The notes under the pieces are model-generated. The model saw nothing but the letters and a program-made list of their open reading frames with translations, did not search any database and was not told the origin of the DNA. Source: a virus. Taken from it: 41,247 nt of DNA. Made by a program: the position numbers and the translations under genes. Shown piece after piece: positions 8,863 to 34,062 of this stretch; within the stretch, counting starts at the first letter, position 1; each line of letters opens with the position of its first letter. The stretch lies in the IMG/VR virus record IMGVR_UViG_3300025867_000675; one strand, written 5' to 3'.

Positions 8863-9456
8863 ATGGACACTCCAAAATTCATCAGGACCGAACTCCTCCA
8901 GCTCTCGCCCAAGGCCAAGGCCTTGCACATCTACGTCGAAGGCGAGGTCGATCTCAACCAGTTCCTCAAATACGCTGACGAGGTCTACCACAACTTTGGC
9001 AAGGACGGCGTCATGCAGGTCTCGGTCTGGGTCACCGGCGGCGTCACGGCCTTCATCGACCAGCGCGACATGGGCTATTGGCTGATCGGGCTTACCACCA
9101 TGAACACCCTGCTCGCCCAGGAGACCGCCCGCGTCCTCAAGCTCCCGAACCTGGCAGTCGAGAGCGACCTAGTCGGCCACAACATCATCCGCTCCCAGAG
9201 AGACCGCGACATCTTGCAAGTCCTGGCTACCGCCCGACCCCCGAACTTCGAGCAGATCATCAAAGAGGAATGCGACCGCTTCTACAAGGGCATGATCAAG
9301 GCACCCGCCCACTGCCCGACCTGCAAGCTCCAGTTCACCAACCCGACCACGGGCCTGGTTCAAGCCACCTGCCACCAGTGCAACAAGCCCCTCGTCGCCG
9401 GACCCCCTCTGGCACAGCCCAGGAGCTCCCCGAAGACCACGTCCCTACGACGCTAG
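8863..9456 (+). CDS. hypothetical protein with C-terminal zinc ribbon; likely continues to 9782 via -1 frame disruption near 9410
   Basis: ATG internal to ORF 8800..9456 (TTG); frame-0 ORF 9078..9782 has junk N-terminus but protein-like C-terminus ending CPMCGRTWCECG. Confidence 0.5.
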   Translation: MDTPKFIRTELLQLSPKAKALHIYVEGEVDLNQFLKYADEVYHNFGKDGVMQVSVWVTGGVTAFIDQRDMGYWLIGLTTMNTLLAQETARVLKLPNLAVESDLVGHNIIRSQRDRDILQVLATARPPNFEQIIKEECDRFYKGMIKAPAHCPTCKLQFTNPTTGLVQATCHQCNKPLVAGPPLAQPRSSPKTTSLRR

Positions 9457-9796
9457 ACGAAGCTCCCCAGAGCCCTTCAGAGCCCCTCCTGACCAAAGTC
9501 ATCCTCCCTACGCCCCTTGACCACGTCGTCACAAGCATCCTGACAGCCCCAGAGGCACCCGTCACCCAAGCCCCTGTGGAACCTAGCCCTGCCCTCTCTG
9601 TCATCCCTGACTCATGCCTGGGCTTCAAGGAAACGCCCCCTACGCAGAAAGGCTTCGGCATGGACATCTTCGAGATCGGCAACCGAGGCCCCAAGGAAAC
9701 AGGCTCTAACGACTACCCGGTCTGCCCCATGTGCGGCAGAACCTGGTGTGAGTGCGGCAAGGGCCCTGAACACCGGCCCTAACCATAAGAAACCCT

Positions 9797-9988
9797 ATGA
9801 GAACCTCTACCTGCCGCATCTGCGGCGTAACCTTCAATAAGAAGACCCGCAAGTACCGTGGCGCCCGTAGCAACGCCTGCGACGCCCATAACAGATACTT
9901 CACCCTCCCTAAGGGCCTGTTCGAGGAGATCGCAGGCCACTACGATGCCTCCGTAAGGCCCTCAGAGGCTGCAGAGATGGTGGGATGA
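9797..9988 (+). CDS. small zinc-binding protein
   Basis: ORF track; CRICG…CDAH. Confidence 0.5.
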   Translation: MRTSTCRICGVTFNKKTRKYRGARSNACDAHNRYFTLPKGLFEEIAGHYDASVRPSEAAEMVG

Positions 9989-10119
9989 TAGTGGACGAAG
10001 AGCTCTATTGCCACGCCATAGCAGTCCCTGAATCCATCTACATTGACTTCAATGCGTATGACGTCTGCCTAGACGGGAAGAGGGTGCGCATCATGCGGCC
10101 TAAGAGCACCTGGGACTGA
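9985..10119 (+). CDS. small hypothetical protein (44 aa)
   Basis: ATGA overlap with previous stop. Confidence 0.3.
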   Translation: MIVDEELYCHAIAVPESIYIDFNAYDVCLDGKRVRIMRPKSTWD

Positions 10120-10183
10120 TTAACGGACTGACATGCCGTTCTCTACGCGAAAGCGGTCCAACATCTAAATCGTAGACAAATTT

Positions 10184-13100
10184 ATGCCTGAAAATTTTGC
10201 TGAGCCCATCGGAGCGGCTGCTAATGAGAGTCAAGTCGCTGACAGTCAAGCACTTACGACGCGAGCCCAGGTACGCGAAAACCCCCTGCTTCGGCGACCC
10301 GCGCGAGCCCGTAGACAAGCCGGAGCCCCCGAGCCCGCGCCCTCGGTTGACGCAACGCCCACGATCCCGGGAACCCTTGAGGGCGCTGTGGAAGCCCGGG
10401 TAGCCAGTCCTGGCGAGCTCGTCCCGCCCATCCGAGCCCCGTTCAGACGCGCAGATTCAGCGAGGGTGCGGTCGTCGTACCGTGAGGTCTCGGACGCGGT
10501 TCGCGAGACATCGAACCGTTTGCAGGCCACCATGGCATCCGCGCCAGCTCCAGCGACCCCAGAATGGCCCCACGATGACATGGGCGACATTGACGAGGCT
10601 CCTGCTCAAGTCTCTGAGCGCCCCAGCTCTGATCGTCCCAGACCGCATCCTAGCGTGCTCGAGCCTCCCTCTCGAGCTCTAGACAACGCGCGGGTTGGCC
10701 AGGTTCAGGCCCCGTTCGACGAGACCATGGTCAATACGAACGACCCGACGCCTACCCCAGTGGTGAACGTGCGGGTTGAGCGCAGCCAGGTAGTGGAGCG
10801 CCCGCGCCGACTCGATGGAACGTGGACAGCTGAAGCTGAAACGACTCTGGCTACACACGCGCCACCCCAGCCCGTCCTGAGCGAGCAGGTCATAGCGCAG
10901 ATGCGCGAGCTGTCTAACCAGGTTCAACGGGTGCACGAGGTGGTGAACCCGGAGACGGGAGAGACCATGCGCCTTCCTGCTGCGACTATTGGACCAGGTG
11001 AGATCGCGAACCGAATCCAGCTGGTGAACGACATGATGGCAGCTTCCGCGGATGCAGTGACACGGCGAAACAACATCGTTGAAACAATCGGACGAACGAT
11101 CAGGCGGATGCGCGAGTCCAGGAACCAGCTCGCCCAGGTTAGCCACAACCAGCCCACTAGCCATAGACGAGATGAGGCAACGAACGCGGTCAGGGTATGC
11201 GACCAGCTCTTGAGCGCGTTCGACGAGGTGAGACCGACGATCAACAACGTATCCGACGTAAGCGACCGGCTGCTTATGGACTTCCAGGCAGCGTGCGAAG
11301 GCCAGACCGAGAACATGGACAGGATGCGCGATCAGTTTGACGCAATAACTGCTGCGGGTGCTGCGTTTAACTTTGACCCGCAGGCTCAGGCTCGGCGCCG
11401 CTCAGGGGCCTCTCCCACGCCCACCAATGAAGACCAGGTAGTCATCAACACAAACCTGTTGAGGCAGCTACGCGAGACCGTGAGCGCAGCGAGGACCATC
11501 CGCTCTTCGAACGTCATCACCCCTGAGCAGTGGAACCAATACGAAAACACTCTGAACGAGGCCGCAACCATCCTGTCAGCGAACAACGTCAACAGTCCTA
11601 TCACCGCGATGGACGCTTTGACGAGCTACGCAGAGGCGATCAGAAGGGTTGACCACACCCTGGCAGCCCTGAACAGTCAGATAATGCACACTCGCTACGG
11701 GGCTCCACAGTCACAGTCACAGTCACAAGAGACGCCTCCTATTCCTACCCCGATGCCACCCGTCGCTCCAATGAGCGAGCCACCTGGCGTAGTCCACTAC
11801 CTGGACCGCATCACTCCTGGCGAACCTCAGTTACGAATTTCTGGATCACCACGCACCGTCCGAAGCAACTTGTCTCTGGGTGAGGCAGCCCGCCAGTTCG
11901 CTGCGAGCCAGGAGACCCAGCGAGGAATTGACCTTCTTACCGAGCAGCTGAACTCGTACAATGCTGGCCTGAGAACTTCAGCCGCTGAACGCACTCAGTC
12001 TTGCCAAGAGCTGTCCTCGCGCATTCGAGGCTACTACACTGAGATCGACACGATGAGCAGTCGACTGGTGGCGCTTATCGCAGAGCATGGCACCAACCAG
12101 CGCTTGAACCCCGACGTCCTATCTGCGATGGCGCGAGCTGAAGACGCACGGCGCATGCAGGCCATGGTAGAACAAGCCGTAGCAAGCCAATCTGATGTGG
12201 TCCTTGAGACGATACTCGACACCTGCAGCATTGCCGTATCGCGTCTAGGGACGGCCATTGGCATGCTAACCCAAGTCGAGGTTACGGAGGATCCCACTGC
12301 GCCCGTCACTGTCGAATCAGTGCGTGCTGACATCCGCCGCTTGAGGGATTTAATCAACTCCAACAACGTGCTTCTGCCTCCTGCCGTTCTGCGCGAGGTG
12401 CTAGGAGCCAACCAGCGCGCTCAGACCATCTACAACGCGAACCCTGCAAACATTGGAGAGCTTATATCTGCGCGTGAAGGGTTGCAGAGAGCGCAGTCCA
12501 TGATCCAGCATGTAATGACCCCTGCGACGCCATCACCCACTGCTGCACCAGTTCCTCAAGCGCAACCTGAACCTCCTGCCACTCTCAGGAGCGCACCGAA
12601 CCTCGTGGCTCAGCAAGCCACCGCGGACGCTGCTAACCAAGACTTCGTAGTCACTGCAGGCTACTCAAACTCGAACTCACTCACTATGGAAATCCCTGTC
12701 CCCACAACCACCACGGTTCACACAAGCGCTGGCGTGACTGGAACATCTGGCACTCCTGGCATTCGAGGCGTGCGCGGATCTAACCGAGCCGCTACTGATT
12801 ACGACGAGGAAGCTACTGATTACGGCGAGGAAGCAGACGCGCCCGACACCAACCCGTATCAACCTGCGACCACCCTGCGCCAGGGCGATGTCTTCATCAT
12901 CGTGGACACCGCCCAGGGATCTCCTAACCTGGAGACCAAGCAGCTGTGCGAGTGCGTCTCAACCTCCAGCTTTGGGATCCACTACAACGAGATCGGCCAG
13001 ATGGGTGTGCCTACCCGGTCGCTGTCTCCCACACGGATGATCAGCAAGCTGCAAGTCACGAACCACTGGATGGTCACTCCCACATCTCAGCGCGACCTGC

Positions 13101-13324
13101 TCCACCGCATGTGGCACATCTACGCCACGGCCACCGAATATCCGCTCTCTGTGTCAATCATGCAGAGGGAGCCGTCTGATGCAAGCAGCCCAATCAGGTC
13201 TGAGGCTGTGCGTCCCTCGATCGCCGAGCGCATGGTCTATACCAGCAAGCGCGATCTCTCACTCGCTTTGAACGCGCTCCGCGTGTTCGACCGTACCGAA
13301 TGTTTTACACGTTCTAACCGCTAA
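10184..13324 (+). CDS. giant (1046 aa) low-complexity/helical protein, P/A/R-rich N-terminus, more globular C-terminus
   Basis: ORF track; ATTTATG junction start; internal QSQSQSQ and ATDY(D/G)EE tandem repeats. Confidence 0.7.
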   Translation: MPENFAEPIGAAANESQVADSQALTTRAQVRENPLLRRPARARRQAGAPEPAPSVDATPTIPGTLEGAVEARVASPGELVPPIRAPFRRADSARVRSSYREVSDAVRETSNRLQATMASAPAPATPEWPHDDMGDIDEAPAQVSERPSSDRPRPHPSVLEPPSRALDNARVGQVQAPFDETMVNTNDPTPTPVVNVRVERSQVVERPRRLDGTWTAEAETTLATHAPPQPVLSEQVIAQMRELSNQVQRVHEVVNPETGETMRLPAATIGPGEIANRIQLVNDMMAASADAVTRRNNIVETIGRTIRRMRESRNQLAQVSHNQPTSHRRDEATNAVRVCDQLLSAFDEVRPTINNVSDVSDRLLMDFQAACEGQTENMDRMRDQFDAITAAGAAFNFDPQAQARRRSGASPTPTNEDQVVINTNLLRQLRETVSAARTIRSSNVITPEQWNQYENTLNEAATILSANNVNSPITAMDALTSYAEAIRRVDHTLAALNSQIMHTRYGAPQSQSQSQETPPIPTPMPPVAPMSEPPGVVHYLDRITPGEPQLRISGSPRTVRSNLSLGEAARQFAASQETQRGIDLLTEQLNSYNAGLRTSAAERTQSCQELSSRIRGYYTEIDTMSSRLVALIAEHGTNQRLNPDVLSAMARAEDARRMQAMVEQAVASQSDVVLETILDTCSIAVSRLGTAIGMLTQVEVTEDPTAPVTVESVRADIRRLRDLINSNNVLLPPAVLREVLGANQRAQTIYNANPANIGELISAREGLQRAQSMIQHVMTPATPSPTAAPVPQAQPEPPATLRSAPNLVAQQATADAANQDFVVTAGYSNSNSLTMEIPVPTTTTVHTSAGVTGTSGTPGIRGVRGSNRAATDYDEEATDYGEEADAPDTNPYQPATTLRQGDVFIIVDTAQGSPNLETKQLCECVSTSSFGIHYNEIGQMGVPTRSLSPTRMISKLQVTNHWMVTPTSQRDLLHRMWHIYATATEYPLSVSIMQREPSDASSPIRSEAVRPSIAERMVYTSKRDLSLALNALRVFDRTECFTRSNR
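12791..12832 (+). repeat. 21-bp tandem duplication (gctactgattacgRcgaggaa x2) inside giant ORF
   Basis: direct inspection; encodes ATDYDEE ATDYGEE. Confidence 0.6.
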
Positions 13325-13337
13325 CAAATAAAAGCAT

Positions 13338-13571
13338 ATGCCAAACAAAGACAGATACCCGGACAACGTCCCTGGAAAGTTCTACACCGACAACAACTGC
13401 ATTGACTGCGATCTCTGCCGCGAGGCAGCGCCCGCTCACTTCGACCGCAACGAGGAAGGATTCTCGTTCGTGAAGAAGCAGCCCACGACTCCTGAAGAGA
13501 TGGCGGCCTGCGTCGAAGCGAAGGACGGTTGCCCGGTGGAAGCCATCATGGACGATGGCGACGACAAGTAA
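13338..13571 (+). CDS. bacterial-type single-cluster [4Fe-4S]/[3Fe-4S] ferredoxin
   Basis: CIDCDLC … GCPVEAI motifs. Confidence 0.8.
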   Translation: MPNKDRYPDNVPGKFYTDNNCIDCDLCREAAPAHFDRNEEGFSFVKKQPTTPEEMAACVEAKDGCPVEAIMDDGDDK

Positions 13572-30924: not shown

Positions 30925-31133
30925 ACCAACTAGTCAAGCTTGAAAACTCGCAGGGACGCCACGTCTGGCTCAACCCTGAAACAGTCGCAAGTATCCAGGT
31001 CACAGAGAGATCTCGCGACATCACCGAGGTGAAGCTCATGAGTGGCGAGGTCGGGAATTACAGAGGGACTCCGGACGCATTCCTGCTGACTCTGCGCTTG
31101 GGTGTAAGTCAGATGCCAACCTCTGAGAGATGA
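30921..31133 (+). CDS. small hypothetical protein
   Basis: ATGA overlap. Confidence 0.5.
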   Translation: MNQLVKLENSQGRHVWLNPETVASIQVTERSRDITEVKLMSGEVGNYRGTPDAFLLTLRLGVSQMPTSER

Positions 31134-32515
31134 TTGCAAATCCGTGCAGGTTCGATTCCTGCCGCGTTCGCCATAGTTATGGCATGCCCGCAAAGGACAT
31201 TCTAGCCCAGCTGATTGGAGAGTCGGTCACATACCGGCTTCCCCAATCTAAAAACGTCCTCTTCTACGATTTCTACGTTCTCTCGTACCTTCGCAGCCTG
31301 AACCTCGATCCCACGTCAAAGGACTCCAGGGCGTCATTCTTCGGCGGCGAGGTGAAAGAGGATGTCGATCACGCCGTCCAGGTGCTGGTCCCCTACCTCC
31401 GTCAGAACCTCCTCGACGCTACATTCCTGAGCATCTGCGCTGAGATCCGCCACAGCCTCACTGAGCTTCCTGAGTGGAAGCAGTTGGCCAGGAAAATGCC
31501 AATGATGTTTGACTACGCTCGGAACTATCTTTCCAAGCACGCAGGCATGCTTCGCCATACTGGAGAGCCATACCCGGTCAGAGGGAATTCAAAGAGCTAT
31601 GACGATTCAGTCGTGGCGGCGCTTCGCACGATCAGAGACAGGCAGTCAAGCAAGCGCGAGTTCGTGTTTAATTGCCGCAAGATGTTCGCGTCAGGGGGCT
31701 GGTCGGCTGATTACGGCGGCAGACCGTGGGCCGGCATCTGCGACGCCTGGATTCGCTTGCACGACACCAACCCTGGAGATCCGAGCGCGAACTTCGTCAG
31801 CATCGACCACCTGTTCGATATGCAGCACAACACGGGCACGGTGCTCAACAAGGTGAAGGAGTACGCGATCGACGGAGGATATAGCTGGCTTTCACGCGGT
31901 CTCGACAACAAGGCCAAGGTCTCGTCTATCCGGCTGCTGCTTCCAAACTGCTCAAGCGACATGCAACGTCTAGCGGCGAAAACGCTGAAGACGGGCGGAG
32001 AGCCAGAGATTCAAAAGCCTAAGGACTGGCCAAAGTACTTCCAATACGGAGCAACGCTGTTCAAAGCCGAATCTGCAACGTGCAAAGGTTTTTGGTACAA
32101 GGACGCGACAAGTGAGTGGATCCCACGGTTGTCACCAGAGTCGCTCTTTGACTACGCGAAGAGGCACAACTTTAGGGCGCTTACTCCTAAGGACGTGGCC
32201 GTAAGCTTTCCGTGCGCTATTGGCTACAGCAAGCAGTACACTGGGTATGACGCCAAGAAGGCAAAGTATACCAGCGCCGAAGATGAAGAAGAGCGGCGCG
32301 ATCCTCCGCCTCGCGTCCACGGCCACGCGCATGTAACATTCCTTCACGACGGAAAGACCTATGACCTGGTGTACTCGCACTTCTGCGGCGGGACGCTGAT
32401 CCGGCTTCCGAAAGAGCTCGGTGGAAATTGGGGAACCTACTACAAGGGCGAGATCAAGGACGGAAAAGTGATTCACAGGATCGGCCCAGTTGACTTCAAC
32501 AGCGGGCACAAGTGA
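31130..32515 (+). CDS. large hypothetical protein (461 aa)
   Basis: ORF track; ATGA overlap. Confidence 0.65.
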   Translation: MIANPCRFDSCRVRHSYGMPAKDILAQLIGESVTYRLPQSKNVLFYDFYVLSYLRSLNLDPTSKDSRASFFGGEVKEDVDHAVQVLVPYLRQNLLDATFLSICAEIRHSLTELPEWKQLARKMPMMFDYARNYLSKHAGMLRHTGEPYPVRGNSKSYDDSVVAALRTIRDRQSSKREFVFNCRKMFASGGWSADYGGRPWAGICDAWIRLHDTNPGDPSANFVSIDHLFDMQHNTGTVLNKVKEYAIDGGYSWLSRGLDNKAKVSSIRLLLPNCSSDMQRLAAKTLKTGGEPEIQKPKDWPKYFQYGATLFKAESATCKGFWYKDATSEWIPRLSPESLFDYAKRHNFRALTPKDVAVSFPCAIGYSKQYTGYDAKKAKYTSAEDEEERRDPPPRVHGHAHVTFLHDGKTYDLVYSHFCGGTLIRLPKELGGNWGTYYKGEIKDGKVIHRIGPVDFNSGHK

Positions 32516-32523
32516 TTCTCTAG

Positions 32524-33909
32524 TTGGTGAGAATCTTAGTTTTAGCCATTGCTAGCATCGCGCTCGTCTGCAACGCGTCCACGAACATCGTCATCGACTG
32601 CTCTAAAATTGTCGGCGAGTTCAAACCCCTAAACAGCATCAACGGCGGCATCCTCGTTAAGGATGGCACATACGACCTGACCGAGCCGAGCAAGAAGGCT
32701 GCTTTCCCGATGTTCCGCCTCCACGACTGCGTCTTCGCCTACCACGAGGTGGTTGATGTCCACTGCATCTTCAGAGACTTTAGGAACGACCCGTCGAATC
32801 CGGACAACTACTTCTTTGCGAGGACTGACGATTACCTGCTTCCAATCCTGACCAACGGCTTCAAGGTGGTTTACCGGCTTGGAGAGAGCATCGAGCACAC
32901 TCCCAAGAAGTACTTCATAAACGCGCCTGATCCGCACAAGTGGGCTGAGATCTGCAAGGGAATCATCCGTCACTACAACCACGGCTGGGCTAACGGGTTT
33001 CACTACGGAATCGTCTACTGGGAGATCTGGAGCGAGCCAGAGAACTACCTCAACTGGAAGGGAAGCGATGAGGCGTACTTTCAGCTGTACGACATCGCCT
33101 CAAAGGAGATCAAGAAGGAGTTCCCGTACGTGAAGATAGGCGGTCCGTCAATGGGTAACCCTTGCATTCCTAGAGACAACTACTGGGTCATCCAGTCGTT
33201 CACTGCATCATTTTTGGAATACTGCCGTGCGCGCAGGTCTCCGATCGACTTCTTCTCGTGGCACAACTACTCTAACAGCCCTTACGAAGTCTGCTCAAAG
33301 GCCAAGGTCATCAGAGAGGCGCTGAACAACTACGGATACACCAACTCTGAGTCGCACCTGAATGAGTGGGGCCACCTGCCTGGAAACAGCTGGGAGGGAC
33401 ACATCTCTAAATCTCACAAGGAGGCTCAGAAGTGGTCAGAACGTGTGAACAGCTTCGACGGCGCCGCTTATACAATGGCGGTCATGCTGGATGGCCAGGA
33501 TGCACCAATAGACGCTGCGTTCACCTTCAACTCGGACACCGGAAGATTCGGCATTTACGACCAGTGGGGAACGCCGCGGCCGACGTGGTACGCGCTGCAA
33601 GCCTTCAGCTGGGTGCTGTCTGGCACCAACATCAGGATCAAGACCACAAATCAGGACCGCGTCTCGGTCGGTGCTGGTGTTTCAAAGGATAAGAGTAAAG
33701 TGCAAGTCCTCGTCAGCCACCGCGCCAACCCTGAGAAGCTCTCGCTGAGCGTCACCAACCTGCCGTGGTCTGGGCAGTCTATCGTCGAGGTGTTTGAGGT
33801 GACAGAGGACAGCTTGGCTCCGATCTTCAAGCGCAGCATGGGAAGCGTCTCCGTTCCGCTTACTCTCTCATCCTCATCTGTCGTGCTCATTCGGGTCATG
33901 CCAAAATAG
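32524..33909 (+). CDS. secreted glycoside hydrolase (clan GH-A-like TIM barrel)
   Basis: signal peptide; WEIWSEPE (acid/base-like NEP) and HLNEWG motifs; TTG/GTG start. Confidence 0.65.
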   Translation: MVRILVLAIASIALVCNASTNIVIDCSKIVGEFKPLNSINGGILVKDGTYDLTEPSKKAAFPMFRLHDCVFAYHEVVDVHCIFRDFRNDPSNPDNYFFARTDDYLLPILTNGFKVVYRLGESIEHTPKKYFINAPDPHKWAEICKGIIRHYNHGWANGFHYGIVYWEIWSEPENYLNWKGSDEAYFQLYDIASKEIKKEFPYVKIGGPSMGNPCIPRDNYWVIQSFTASFLEYCRARRSPIDFFSWHNYSNSPYEVCSKAKVIREALNNYGYTNSESHLNEWGHLPGNSWEGHISKSHKEAQKWSERVNSFDGAAYTMAVMLDGQDAPIDAAFTFNSDTGRFGIYDQWGTPRPTWYALQAFSWVLSGTNIRIKTTNQDRVSVGAGVSKDKSKVQVLVSHRANPEKLSLSVTNLPWSGQSIVEVFEVTEDSLAPIFKRSMGSVSVPLTLSSSSVVLIRVMPK

Positions 33910-33957
33910 TTGCAAATAAATGTTTACATTTTTGCGTATCGTGATATAGTGCTCCCA
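33903..33957 (+). promoter_or_regulatory. promoter copy 4 (-35 TTTACA 33923-33928; TGaTATAGT, -10 33945-33950)
   Basis: only copy not followed by an ATG; followed by structured RNA. Confidence 0.75.
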
Positions 33958-33958
33958 T

Positions 33959-34062
33959 CGACGGTGAAAGTAGTCGGGTGACTACACCTGAAAGCATCTC
34001 CGCCCGAAAGGACGGAGGGATGAACTGAGGGAGAGCGGGTTCGAGTCCCGGTATCGTCGTCA
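33959..34062 (+). ncRNA. tRNA-like structured RNA (non-canonical; 7-8-bp acceptor-like stem, 6-bp/4-nt D-like hairpin, GNRA-capped long hairpin, GGTTCGAGTCC T-loop motif)
   Basis: cgacggt(g) pairs with (t)atcgtcg at 3' end; gtagtc-gggt-gactac hairpin; gcgggTTCGAGTcccgg. Confidence 0.4.

Follow-up and report, generated by a model that had tools for sequence, protein, structure and literature searches.

The GH39 gene and its product

The DNA analysed here, virus record IMGVR_UViG_3300025867_000675 of IMG/VR (41,247 nucleotides; hereafter, the window), contains a gene for a protein of glycoside hydrolase family 39 (GH39), set in an array of small genes of phage-like character and closely preceded by a gene for a 443-aa protein. 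An earlier note on this DNA, made from its letters, had described the product as a secreted TIM-barrel-like enzyme of clan GH-A with the catalytic-type motifs EIWSEPE and LNEWG, and had suggested that it depolymerizes capsule or exopolysaccharide (EPS). The underlying observation is confirmed: the open reading frame (ORF) is intact, the two quoted motifs are present (residues 166-172 and 278-282, respectively), and the product has a family match. Coordinates of the features are collected in Table 1, and residues are numbered throughout on the 460-aa form, which begins at a GTG codon.

The reading frame runs uninterrupted to its stop codon (33907-33909, + strand). An alternative start, TTG at 32524, would give a protein of 461 aa. 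This TTG is immediately preceded by an in-frame TAG, and the next Met is residue 62, which lies within the conserved core; translation must therefore begin at either TTG or GTG, and both starts are used by gene callers in public assemblies. The DNA of the gene is 100% identical in five contigs from five samples, that is, in every carrying locus fetched (ENA, JGI and Logan), so that the gene is not an assembly artefact.

The assignment to clan GH-A could be narrowed to GH39, on the strength of the Pfam match, the structure matches and the presence of both catalytic glutamates. At 60 bits, the match to PF01229 (Glyco_hydro_39) exceeds the cut-off of 26, although it covers only residues 86-268. 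The same domain is carried by all 120 listed homologues, one of which has the NCBI name 'GH39 family glycosyl hydrolase'. In total, 1107 homologues passed a threshold of E<=1e-3, with 1e-121 for the best sequence of cellular origin, and searches of PHROGs and NCBIfam with the protein gave no match. Among PDB sequences, the top match is CmGH1 (5z3k, E 3.7e-31), followed by GH39 beta-xylosidases and, lower, by alpha-L-iduronidase. The AlphaFold2 model, built with 35 homologues, has a predicted local distance difference test score (pLDDT) of 92 and a predicted template modelling score (pTM) of 0.90; it displays the catalytic barrel and the C-terminal beta-sandwich typical of the family. The acid/base and nucleophile glutamates fall where the family has them, at the ends of strands 4 and 7, respectively. 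When the model was compared with the PDB by Foldseek, GH39 structures occupied ranks 1-14 and GH51 came next.

In the HMMER alignment with the Thermoanaerobacterium beta-xylosidase XynB (1px8), E170 pairs with the acid/base E160 (WEIWSEPE in the query, FEIWNEPN in XynB) and E280 with the nucleophile E277 (SHLNEWG and FHITEYN, respectively). A family could thus be assigned and neither glutamate is lost in alignment, the two points on which the earlier note had made its reading depend. Both residues, together with R64, H66, D67, H246, Y248 and W289, are invariant in the 120-sequence alignment and kept in the query, and H277 is also invariant among the aligned GH39 homologues. XynB and XynB1 (1w91/2bs9) belong to the same family, share its retaining machinery and conserve the R-x-H and H-x-Y pocket motifs, and XynB has the same two-domain layout; however, they are only 16-19% identical to the window protein and about 500 aa long, and the window protein additionally has an export signal, as well as Ser rather than Asn in the 'NEP' motif. 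Both xylosidases are tetramers in solution (PMC6933502). We rejected an endolysin reading of the protein: peptidoglycan is not a substrate of the GH39 family, and since the genome has a separate endolysin-type Hydrolase_2 gene elsewhere, the GH39 protein need not be a lysin.

Active-site changes of the phage copy

The NEP motif of clan GH-A reads SEP in the window protein, its Asn being replaced by S169 (codon AGC, 33031-33033). Enzymes of this clan use the Asn to form a hydrogen bond with the 2-hydroxyl of the -1 sugar. Asn occupies position 169 in 119 of 119 protein homologues and in all 80 motif matches from a scan of 80 further genome loci, one of which gave no match. Other near-invariant residues are changed as well. 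The loop after E170 reads ENY-LNW, with one residue deleted relative to the ENRPxMW of homologues; position 282 is Gly (Asn in 117 of 119 homologues), position 283 is His (Tyr in 106), position 315 is Tyr (Phe in 116) and position 344 is also Tyr (Phe in all 119). Of these changes, those at 169, 282 and 283 and in the loop that follows E170 are immediate neighbours of the catalytic glutamates. All that catalysis requires is kept, and the pattern looks more like shifted specificity than like decay.

The closest solved structure is CmGH1 of Croceicoccus marinus, which has Gln157 and Tyr264 at the positions of the catalytic glutamates and is barely active; its groove is described as narrow and of exo-type, like that of XynB and unlike those of the endo-acting PslG and GH39wh2 (PMC6933502). 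The two proteins share the two-domain layout, but the window protein has both glutamates, whereas CmGH1 has neither; moreover, the window protein has a signal, whereas the CmGH1 paper mentions no signal peptide (PMC6933502). It could be argued from this relationship that the phage copy is itself catalytically weakened, or a binding-only protein (lectin-like or very slow) comparable to CmGH1. Such a loss would agree with the substitution of an Asn found in every homologue examined, with the long branch of the phage protein and with the degenerate state of its closest solved relative, for which a kcat of about 2 per minute was reported (PMC6933502). We nevertheless consider it very unlikely, as the protein retains both glutamates and R64, H66, H246, Y248 and W289, five samples yielded the same intact ORF, and the structural model is of high confidence. 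A GH39 enzyme that keeps both glutamates without the Asn that reads the 2-hydroxyl would amount to a small natural experiment, and could reveal a specificity useful in glycan analysis.

N-terminal signal and export

The predicted signal peptide shows the layout M-R / ILVLAIASIALV / C-N-A|S, in which R2 constitutes the positive n-region and the cleavage site has small residues, Cys at -3 and Ala at -1. The hydrophobic core comprises 12-13 residues, with 11-residue Kyte-Doolittle means of up to 3.06; the call was made by inspection and these hydropathy windows only. In the AlphaFold2 model, residues 2-14 form a helix of low confidence that stands apart from the core, whose first strand is placed at residue 19. 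Two other readings of the segment were considered. A lipoprotein was rejected, as the site (A-L-V-C) has no canonical lipobox, and a signal anchor is unlikely, the hydrophobic core being short for a membrane anchor. The signal peptide claimed earlier is thus upheld as a Sec-type n/h/c arrangement, to the extent that such a layout can be read from sequence. A comparable N-terminal hydrophobic segment is found in 104 of the 113 homologues with a complete N-terminus, which indicates that export is an inherited trait of the family and not an invention of the phage.

The earlier proposal that the enzyme is exported rather than carried on a virion is also sensible. The N-terminus is taken up by the signal, and the protein has no virion-anchoring module and no beta-helix tailspike module. 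Features expected of a virion-associated depolymerase are likewise missing: the fold is a TIM barrel with a beta-sandwich, and the neighbouring genes are small ORFans, a patatin and a dihydrofolate reductase (DHFR) rather than tail genes. Because no anchoring module is present and an exported protein cannot join virion assembly in the cytoplasm, the product is best regarded as soluble rather than virion-bound. The GH39 protein is thus predicted to be a soluble, Sec-exported enzyme, cleaved before S18.

Cellular relatives and ancestry

Identical copies aside, the best of the 1107 homologues are only 38-45% identical to the window protein. Among species-representative genomes, the top matches, at 37-45% identity, come from Verrucomicrobia, Anaerohalosphaeraceae, Pirellulales, Phycisphaerales, Sedimentisphaerales, Pedosphaera and similar taxa, and those from Firmicutes and Bacteroidales are lower, at 30-36%. 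The phage protein is an outlier, with a mean identity of 41% to 119 homologues, compared with 52% among those homologues. The composition of its gene is close to that of the neighbours (GC 0.544 and GC at third codon positions 0.74, versus 0.556+-0.025 and 0.69+-0.06 for other genes). Collectively, the top matches of Planctomycetes-Verrucomicrobia (PVC) type, the outlier identity and the neighbour-like composition suggest an old acquisition from a PVC-type bacterium, and the host of the carrier is probably a member of this group.

Compared with the uncharacterized exported GH39 subfamily of Verrucomicrobia and Planctomycetes (P0002, P0013 and P0104 in our set), the phage copy is 37-45% identical over its full length and has in common the N-terminal signal and every pocket residue but the few given next. 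N169S, N282G, F344Y and the one-residue deletion after E170 are confined to the phage copy, with F315Y and Y283H being rare, and the phage copy lies amid phage-like ORFans and not in a glycosidase cluster. Indeed, two of the three cellular homologues checked adjoin other catabolic glycosidase genes: in a 6-Mb genome the homologue lies near GH97, GH127 and GH3, and in a Verrucomicrobiia metagenome-assembled genome (MAG) GH106 directly adjoins it and some 7 kb separate it from GH43 and GH127. In the third, a Verrucomicrobia MAG, an apiosidase gene is found about 4 kb away. None of the three cellular loci inspected contained an exopolysaccharide synthesis operon around the GH39 homologue.

The surroundings of these cellular genes bear on two alternative roles. 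The first is that of a nutritional auxiliary metabolic gene, whose product would clip sugars from imported plant or algal oligosaccharides in the periplasm and so provide more carbon and energy during the long infection by a huge phage. This role is possible, although we hold it to be less than an even chance. Bacteria of the PVC group encode very many glycosidases, so that one more would add little; besides, changes of an invariant Asn and of pocket-adjacent residues would not be expected in a duplicate of a host activity, and neither a transporter nor partner catabolic genes lie nearby. It does find agreement in the GH97, GH127, GH3, GH106, GH43 and apiosidase genes beside the cellular homologues, in the retention of the signal peptide as in cellular enzymes, and in the closest structure being described as exo-type. 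Furthermore, GH39 has been listed among viral auxiliary genes in surveys of trench-sediment and rumen viromes (PMC8725595, PMC11879238), and about 5% of prophage carbohydrate-active enzymes (CAZymes; n=64,678) have signal peptides (PMC13507307).

The second is the role proposed in the earlier note, namely, an endo-depolymerase that degrades capsule or other extracellular polysaccharide of the host in the manner of PslG. The predicted export of the protein, and an active-site remodelling specific to the phage that could reflect a new polymeric substrate, would suit such an enzyme. The comparison with PslG itself does not: the window protein has no sequence similarity to it detectable at E<=1, and structurally PslG ranks below CmGH1 and the exo-xylosidases. 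The cellular homologues lie outside EPS operons, no EPS-related genes were found near the phage copy, and the nearest structure has a narrow groove, whereas an open endo cleft and an EPS operon are features of PslG. PslG is encoded in the psl EPS operon. It is a GH39 endo-hydrolase of the Psl exopolysaccharide of Pseudomonas aeruginosa, with an open endo cleft (4zn2; PMC6933502). We therefore judge this role unlikely; compared with feeding of the host and with trimming of an envelope or matrix glycan (see below), it is the least supported.

As judged by sequence and structure comparisons, there is no close viral relative of this GH39 in the collections searched. A set of 50,697 phage records contained no megablast match to the 21 kb of the window used as query, and tblastn of the GH39 protein against the same records gave a single weak one (MT836841, 24% identity). 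IMG/VR, scanned with the protein and with the alignment, yielded no copy and one marginal relative only, and among BFVD structures only GH5-type clan-mates were found, at a template modelling (TM) score of about 0.6.

The carrier element

Proteins identical to those of the window, including GH39, are encoded on a contig of 222,710 bp, and the element is thus at least 222.7 kb long. Further contigs of the element are ENA ERZ795026 NODE_110 (89,777 bp) and ERZ27257423 k141_348389 (68,022 bp), together with smaller ones in JGI 3300009692 and 3300025858, and a metagenome scan added a contig of 5.8 kb only. All called genes in the window and in about 10 kb past its end (~51 kb together) are on the + strand. 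About 85 genes were called in the window; most are short, packed or overlapping and have no Pfam or PHROG matches, and GH39 is flanked on each side by at least 20 kb of such phage-like ORFans. Besides those listed in Table 1, the recognizable genes include three just past the window end, whose products are a thioredoxin, a P-loop protein and an exonuclease of Rv2179c-like type. Another contig of the element (L021; 54,289 bp, JGI 3300009692) encodes pYEATS, Amidoligase_2, an AAA ATPase and a methyltransferase, in addition to the thymidylate synthase (ThyA) and a Hydrolase_2 protein, a SleB-type cell-wall hydrolase and likely endolysin. Full-length relatives of the patatin-like phospholipase, at about 31% identity, are encoded by Wolbachia phage WO and by the uncultured phage LR745206 (635 kb). 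No housekeeping genes were found in the ~51 kb around the window, and no standard tRNA or Rfam family was detected.

The phage-like setting claimed earlier therefore holds, being attested by the one-strand ORFan array, phage-type genes and homologues in uncultured phages of 595-635 kb; that the array is an 'early' one is suggested by the gene layout only. The carrier is very probably a phage, of the huge-phage type. The opposing view would make it a bacterial chromosome, a plasmid or another large mobile element with a resident GH39. In its favour, no gene for capsid, portal or terminase occurs in the ~70 kb read (the window, ~10 kb beyond it and a separate 16-kb piece), IMG/VR has no copy of the protein and most genes have no PHROG match. 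We find this view very improbable in the face of ~51 kb of short, packed ORFans on one strand that include no housekeeping gene; of the presence on the element of Lar-like anti-restriction, DHFR with ThyA and thioredoxin, pYEATS and Hydrolase_2; of two proteins with homologues in the 595-kb and 635-kb uncultured phages, one of them, the patatin, also in phage WO; and of the recurrence of the same sequence, unchanged, in several samples.

ATG is the start codon of 82 of the 85 genes called in the window, GH39 having one of three GTG starts. A GGAG/GAGG/AGGA core precedes 16 of 85 genes, compared with 11% of random positions; such a low occurrence of the Shine-Dalgarno core suggests a host that relies little on these sites. 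If a huge phage of Planctomycetes or Verrucomicrobia is confirmed, the element will add to the small number of clues to these phages, and to the genes they acquire from hosts specialized in glycans.

Upstream gene and tRNA-like elements

The stop codon of the upstream gene (TGA, 32513-32515) lies 8-11 nt before the start of GH39, and given this short gap the two genes probably form one expression unit. The hairpin between them begins in the upstream TGA and holds the TTG and GTG starts of GH39 in its loop. It may therefore have a role in translational coupling or control, and was also flagged as terminator-like. The 443-aa protein belongs to a family with several copies in the genome, of 443, 618 and 1410 aa (the last being partial), which are 46-55% identical over a common N-terminal domain (about 270 residues), with variable C-termini and the invariant motifs YGG..W and ID...HNTG..LNK. 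Homologues are found in the 595-kb uncultured phage LR756511 and in other large contigs. The protein gave no match in Pfam, NCBIfam or PDB, even when a 22-sequence profile was used.

The unit of two genes is bracketed, exactly, by the two copies of a T-loop motif, GGTTCRANTCC, that occur in the window; 0.19 copies would be expected, and none is present in the other 36 kb examined (L008 and L021). Each copy belongs to a tRNA-like element. In the first, the acceptor is GGGTGTA/CGCGTTC (6/7 pairs) and the D-stem TCAG/CTGA; its T-arm, GCAGG-TTCGATT-CCTGC, is perfect, and it ends with discriminator G and an encoded CCA, but no anticodon stem forms. The second has a 7-bp acceptor (GACGGTG/TATCGTC), the T-arm CGGG-TTCGAGT-CCCG and a D-arm that resembles that of tRNA-Sec (6-bp stem, 4-nt loop); a long GAAA-capped hairpin replaces the anticodon arm. 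This element scores 23.4 bits with the Rfam tRNA-Sec model, below the cut-off of 47, and has a folding z-score of -0.86; the other Rfam score of the two elements, 15.6 bits, is also below threshold. ARAGORN rejects both elements, and allowing introns and lowered thresholds produced mostly noise. The elements could have arisen by decay of tRNA genes, or could mark the boundaries of an insertion or serve as signals for RNA processing.

Table 1. Features of the GH39 locus, of the window and of other loci of the element (coordinates are those of the window unless another locus is named)
Feature	Coordinates	Strand	Details and source
GH39 glycoside hydrolase, coding sequence	32527..33909	+	460 aa from GTG 32527; ORF list and Pfam PF01229
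Predicted Sec (SPI) signal peptide	32527..32577	+	residues 1-17, MRILVLAIASIALVCNA; predicted cleavage before S18
(beta/alpha)8 catalytic barrel	32581..33624	+	~residues 19-366; AlphaFold2 model
Acid/base motif WEIWSEPEN	33019..33045	+	residues 165-173; E170 codon 33034-33036
Nucleophile motif HLNEWG	33355..33372	+	residues 277-282; E280 codon 33364-33366
C-terminal beta-sandwich accessory domain	33631..33906	+	~residues 369-460; AlphaFold2 strands at 369-459
Upstream gene (443-aa family member)	31184..32515	+	443 aa (461 aa from 31130); gene calls; weak phrog_20946 domain
443-aa family member	L008 18061-20327		
443-aa family member	L021 10001-11857		
7-bp hairpin GATTCTC-TAGTTGGT-GAGAATC	32514..32535	+	terminator-like scan; read in sequence
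tRNA-like element 1	31100-31173	+	74 nt; just upstream of the 443-aa gene
tRNA-like element 2	33960-34059	+	100 nt; in the 158-nt gap after the GH39 stop
Strong sigma-70-like promoter	33923-33950	+	TTTACA, 16 nt, TG-TATAGT; 10/12 plus extended -10; precedes tRNA-like element 2
Lar-like restriction alleviation	4405-4983	+	phrog_599
DUF6011	5252-5674	+	
Ferredoxin-like protein	13338-13571	+	77 aa; Fer4_13
Patatin-like phospholipase	38143-38985	+	phrog_25573, E 1.9e-36
DHFR	40949-41247	+	cut by the window end
Hydrolase_2	L021 12285-12668		SleB-type cell-wall hydrolase, likely endolysin
Thymidylate synthase	L021 13181-14110		

Proposed function

Taken together, we favour, as the probable reading, a horizontally acquired, Sec-exported, soluble GH39 enzyme encoded on a very large, probably phage genome of at least 222.7 kb with a probable host in the PVC group. 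According to this reading, the enzyme would be expressed together with the 443-aa protein, the position of the start in the hairpin loop suggesting coupled translation. The 17-residue signal would direct it to the host Sec system and thus into the periplasm or envelope compartment, with predicted cleavage before S18. Once exported, it would be unable to enter virions assembled in the cytoplasm and would reach the outside medium through host secretion or lysis. The mature enzyme is expected to cleave a glycosidic bond by the retaining double displacement of clan GH-A, in which E170 would serve as the acid/base and E280 would be the nucleophile. It may act on chain ends or oligosaccharides rather than as an endo-depolymerase, a tentative suggestion made because the nearest relatives occur in glycan-catabolism loci and the nearest solved structure is narrow-grooved. 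The recognized sugar, especially the 2-position of the sugar at -1, has probably shifted relative to that of the cellular enzymes, as N169S, the remodelled loop, N282G, Y283H, F315Y and F344Y suggest.

As for the benefit to the phage, two candidates appear about equally plausible: trimming of an envelope or matrix glycan of the infected cell, leading to receptor removal or release, and feeding of the host. The active-site changes specific to the phage copy incline us slightly to an envelope or matrix target. In a bolder form of this idea, the rebuilt pocket (NEP to SEP, the loop, and NEWNY to NEWGH) would represent a switch to a host envelope glycan; the Sec-exported enzyme would then serve a huge phage of Planctomycetes or Verrucomicrobia by destroying receptors, much as a neuraminidase does, or by excluding superinfection, and would be made from a two-gene unit bracketed by tRNA-like RNA-processing or insertion boundaries; we offer it as speculation that is quite unlikely to hold in full.

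Several points weigh against the reading of a functional, exported phage enzyme favoured above. The loss of the NEP Asn could mean weakened catalysis, all the more so as the closest solved relative, CmGH1, is nearly inactive. The choice between exo and endo action draws on the published description of that structure, which is 26% identical to the window protein. Structural hallmark genes of a phage were not seen in the ~70 kb read, and the signal peptide was recognized by inspection. Finally, all copies of the gene are identical, leaving no variation for a dN/dS-type test of purifying selection.

Glycoside hydrolases borne by viruses are already known; they include GH5 enzymes in virome surveys and the GH32 enzymes of Bacillus phages, which are thought to act on levan (PMC4595243). 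Like other virus-encoded CAZyme auxiliary genes, the gene described here codes for a host-derived glycoside hydrolase and is flanked by viral-type genes; what sets it apart are the change from NEP to SEP and the probable carrier, a huge phage infecting PVC bacteria. Otherwise, it would be one more exported carbohydrate-active enzyme on the known list of virus-borne auxiliary genes.

Other genes of the window

Three adjacent genes, all on the + strand, open the window. The first (44-1177) codes for an SPFH/Band-7 protein that matches phrog_200 ('lipoprotein'), and the second (1234-2631) for a 465-aa ORFan. The product of the third (2628-3722) matches the shoulder domain of the Major Vault Protein (MVP_shoulder, E 5.5e-22), a Vault_3 repeat and Band-7. 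Further downstream, a GC-rich stretch (9000-13324; 0.62, versus ~0.55) spans the start of a 1046-aa ORFan (10184-13324, + strand), which displays only a sub-threshold match to FIVAR and whose predicted start varies by assembly, giving proteins of 865, 914 or 1046 aa.

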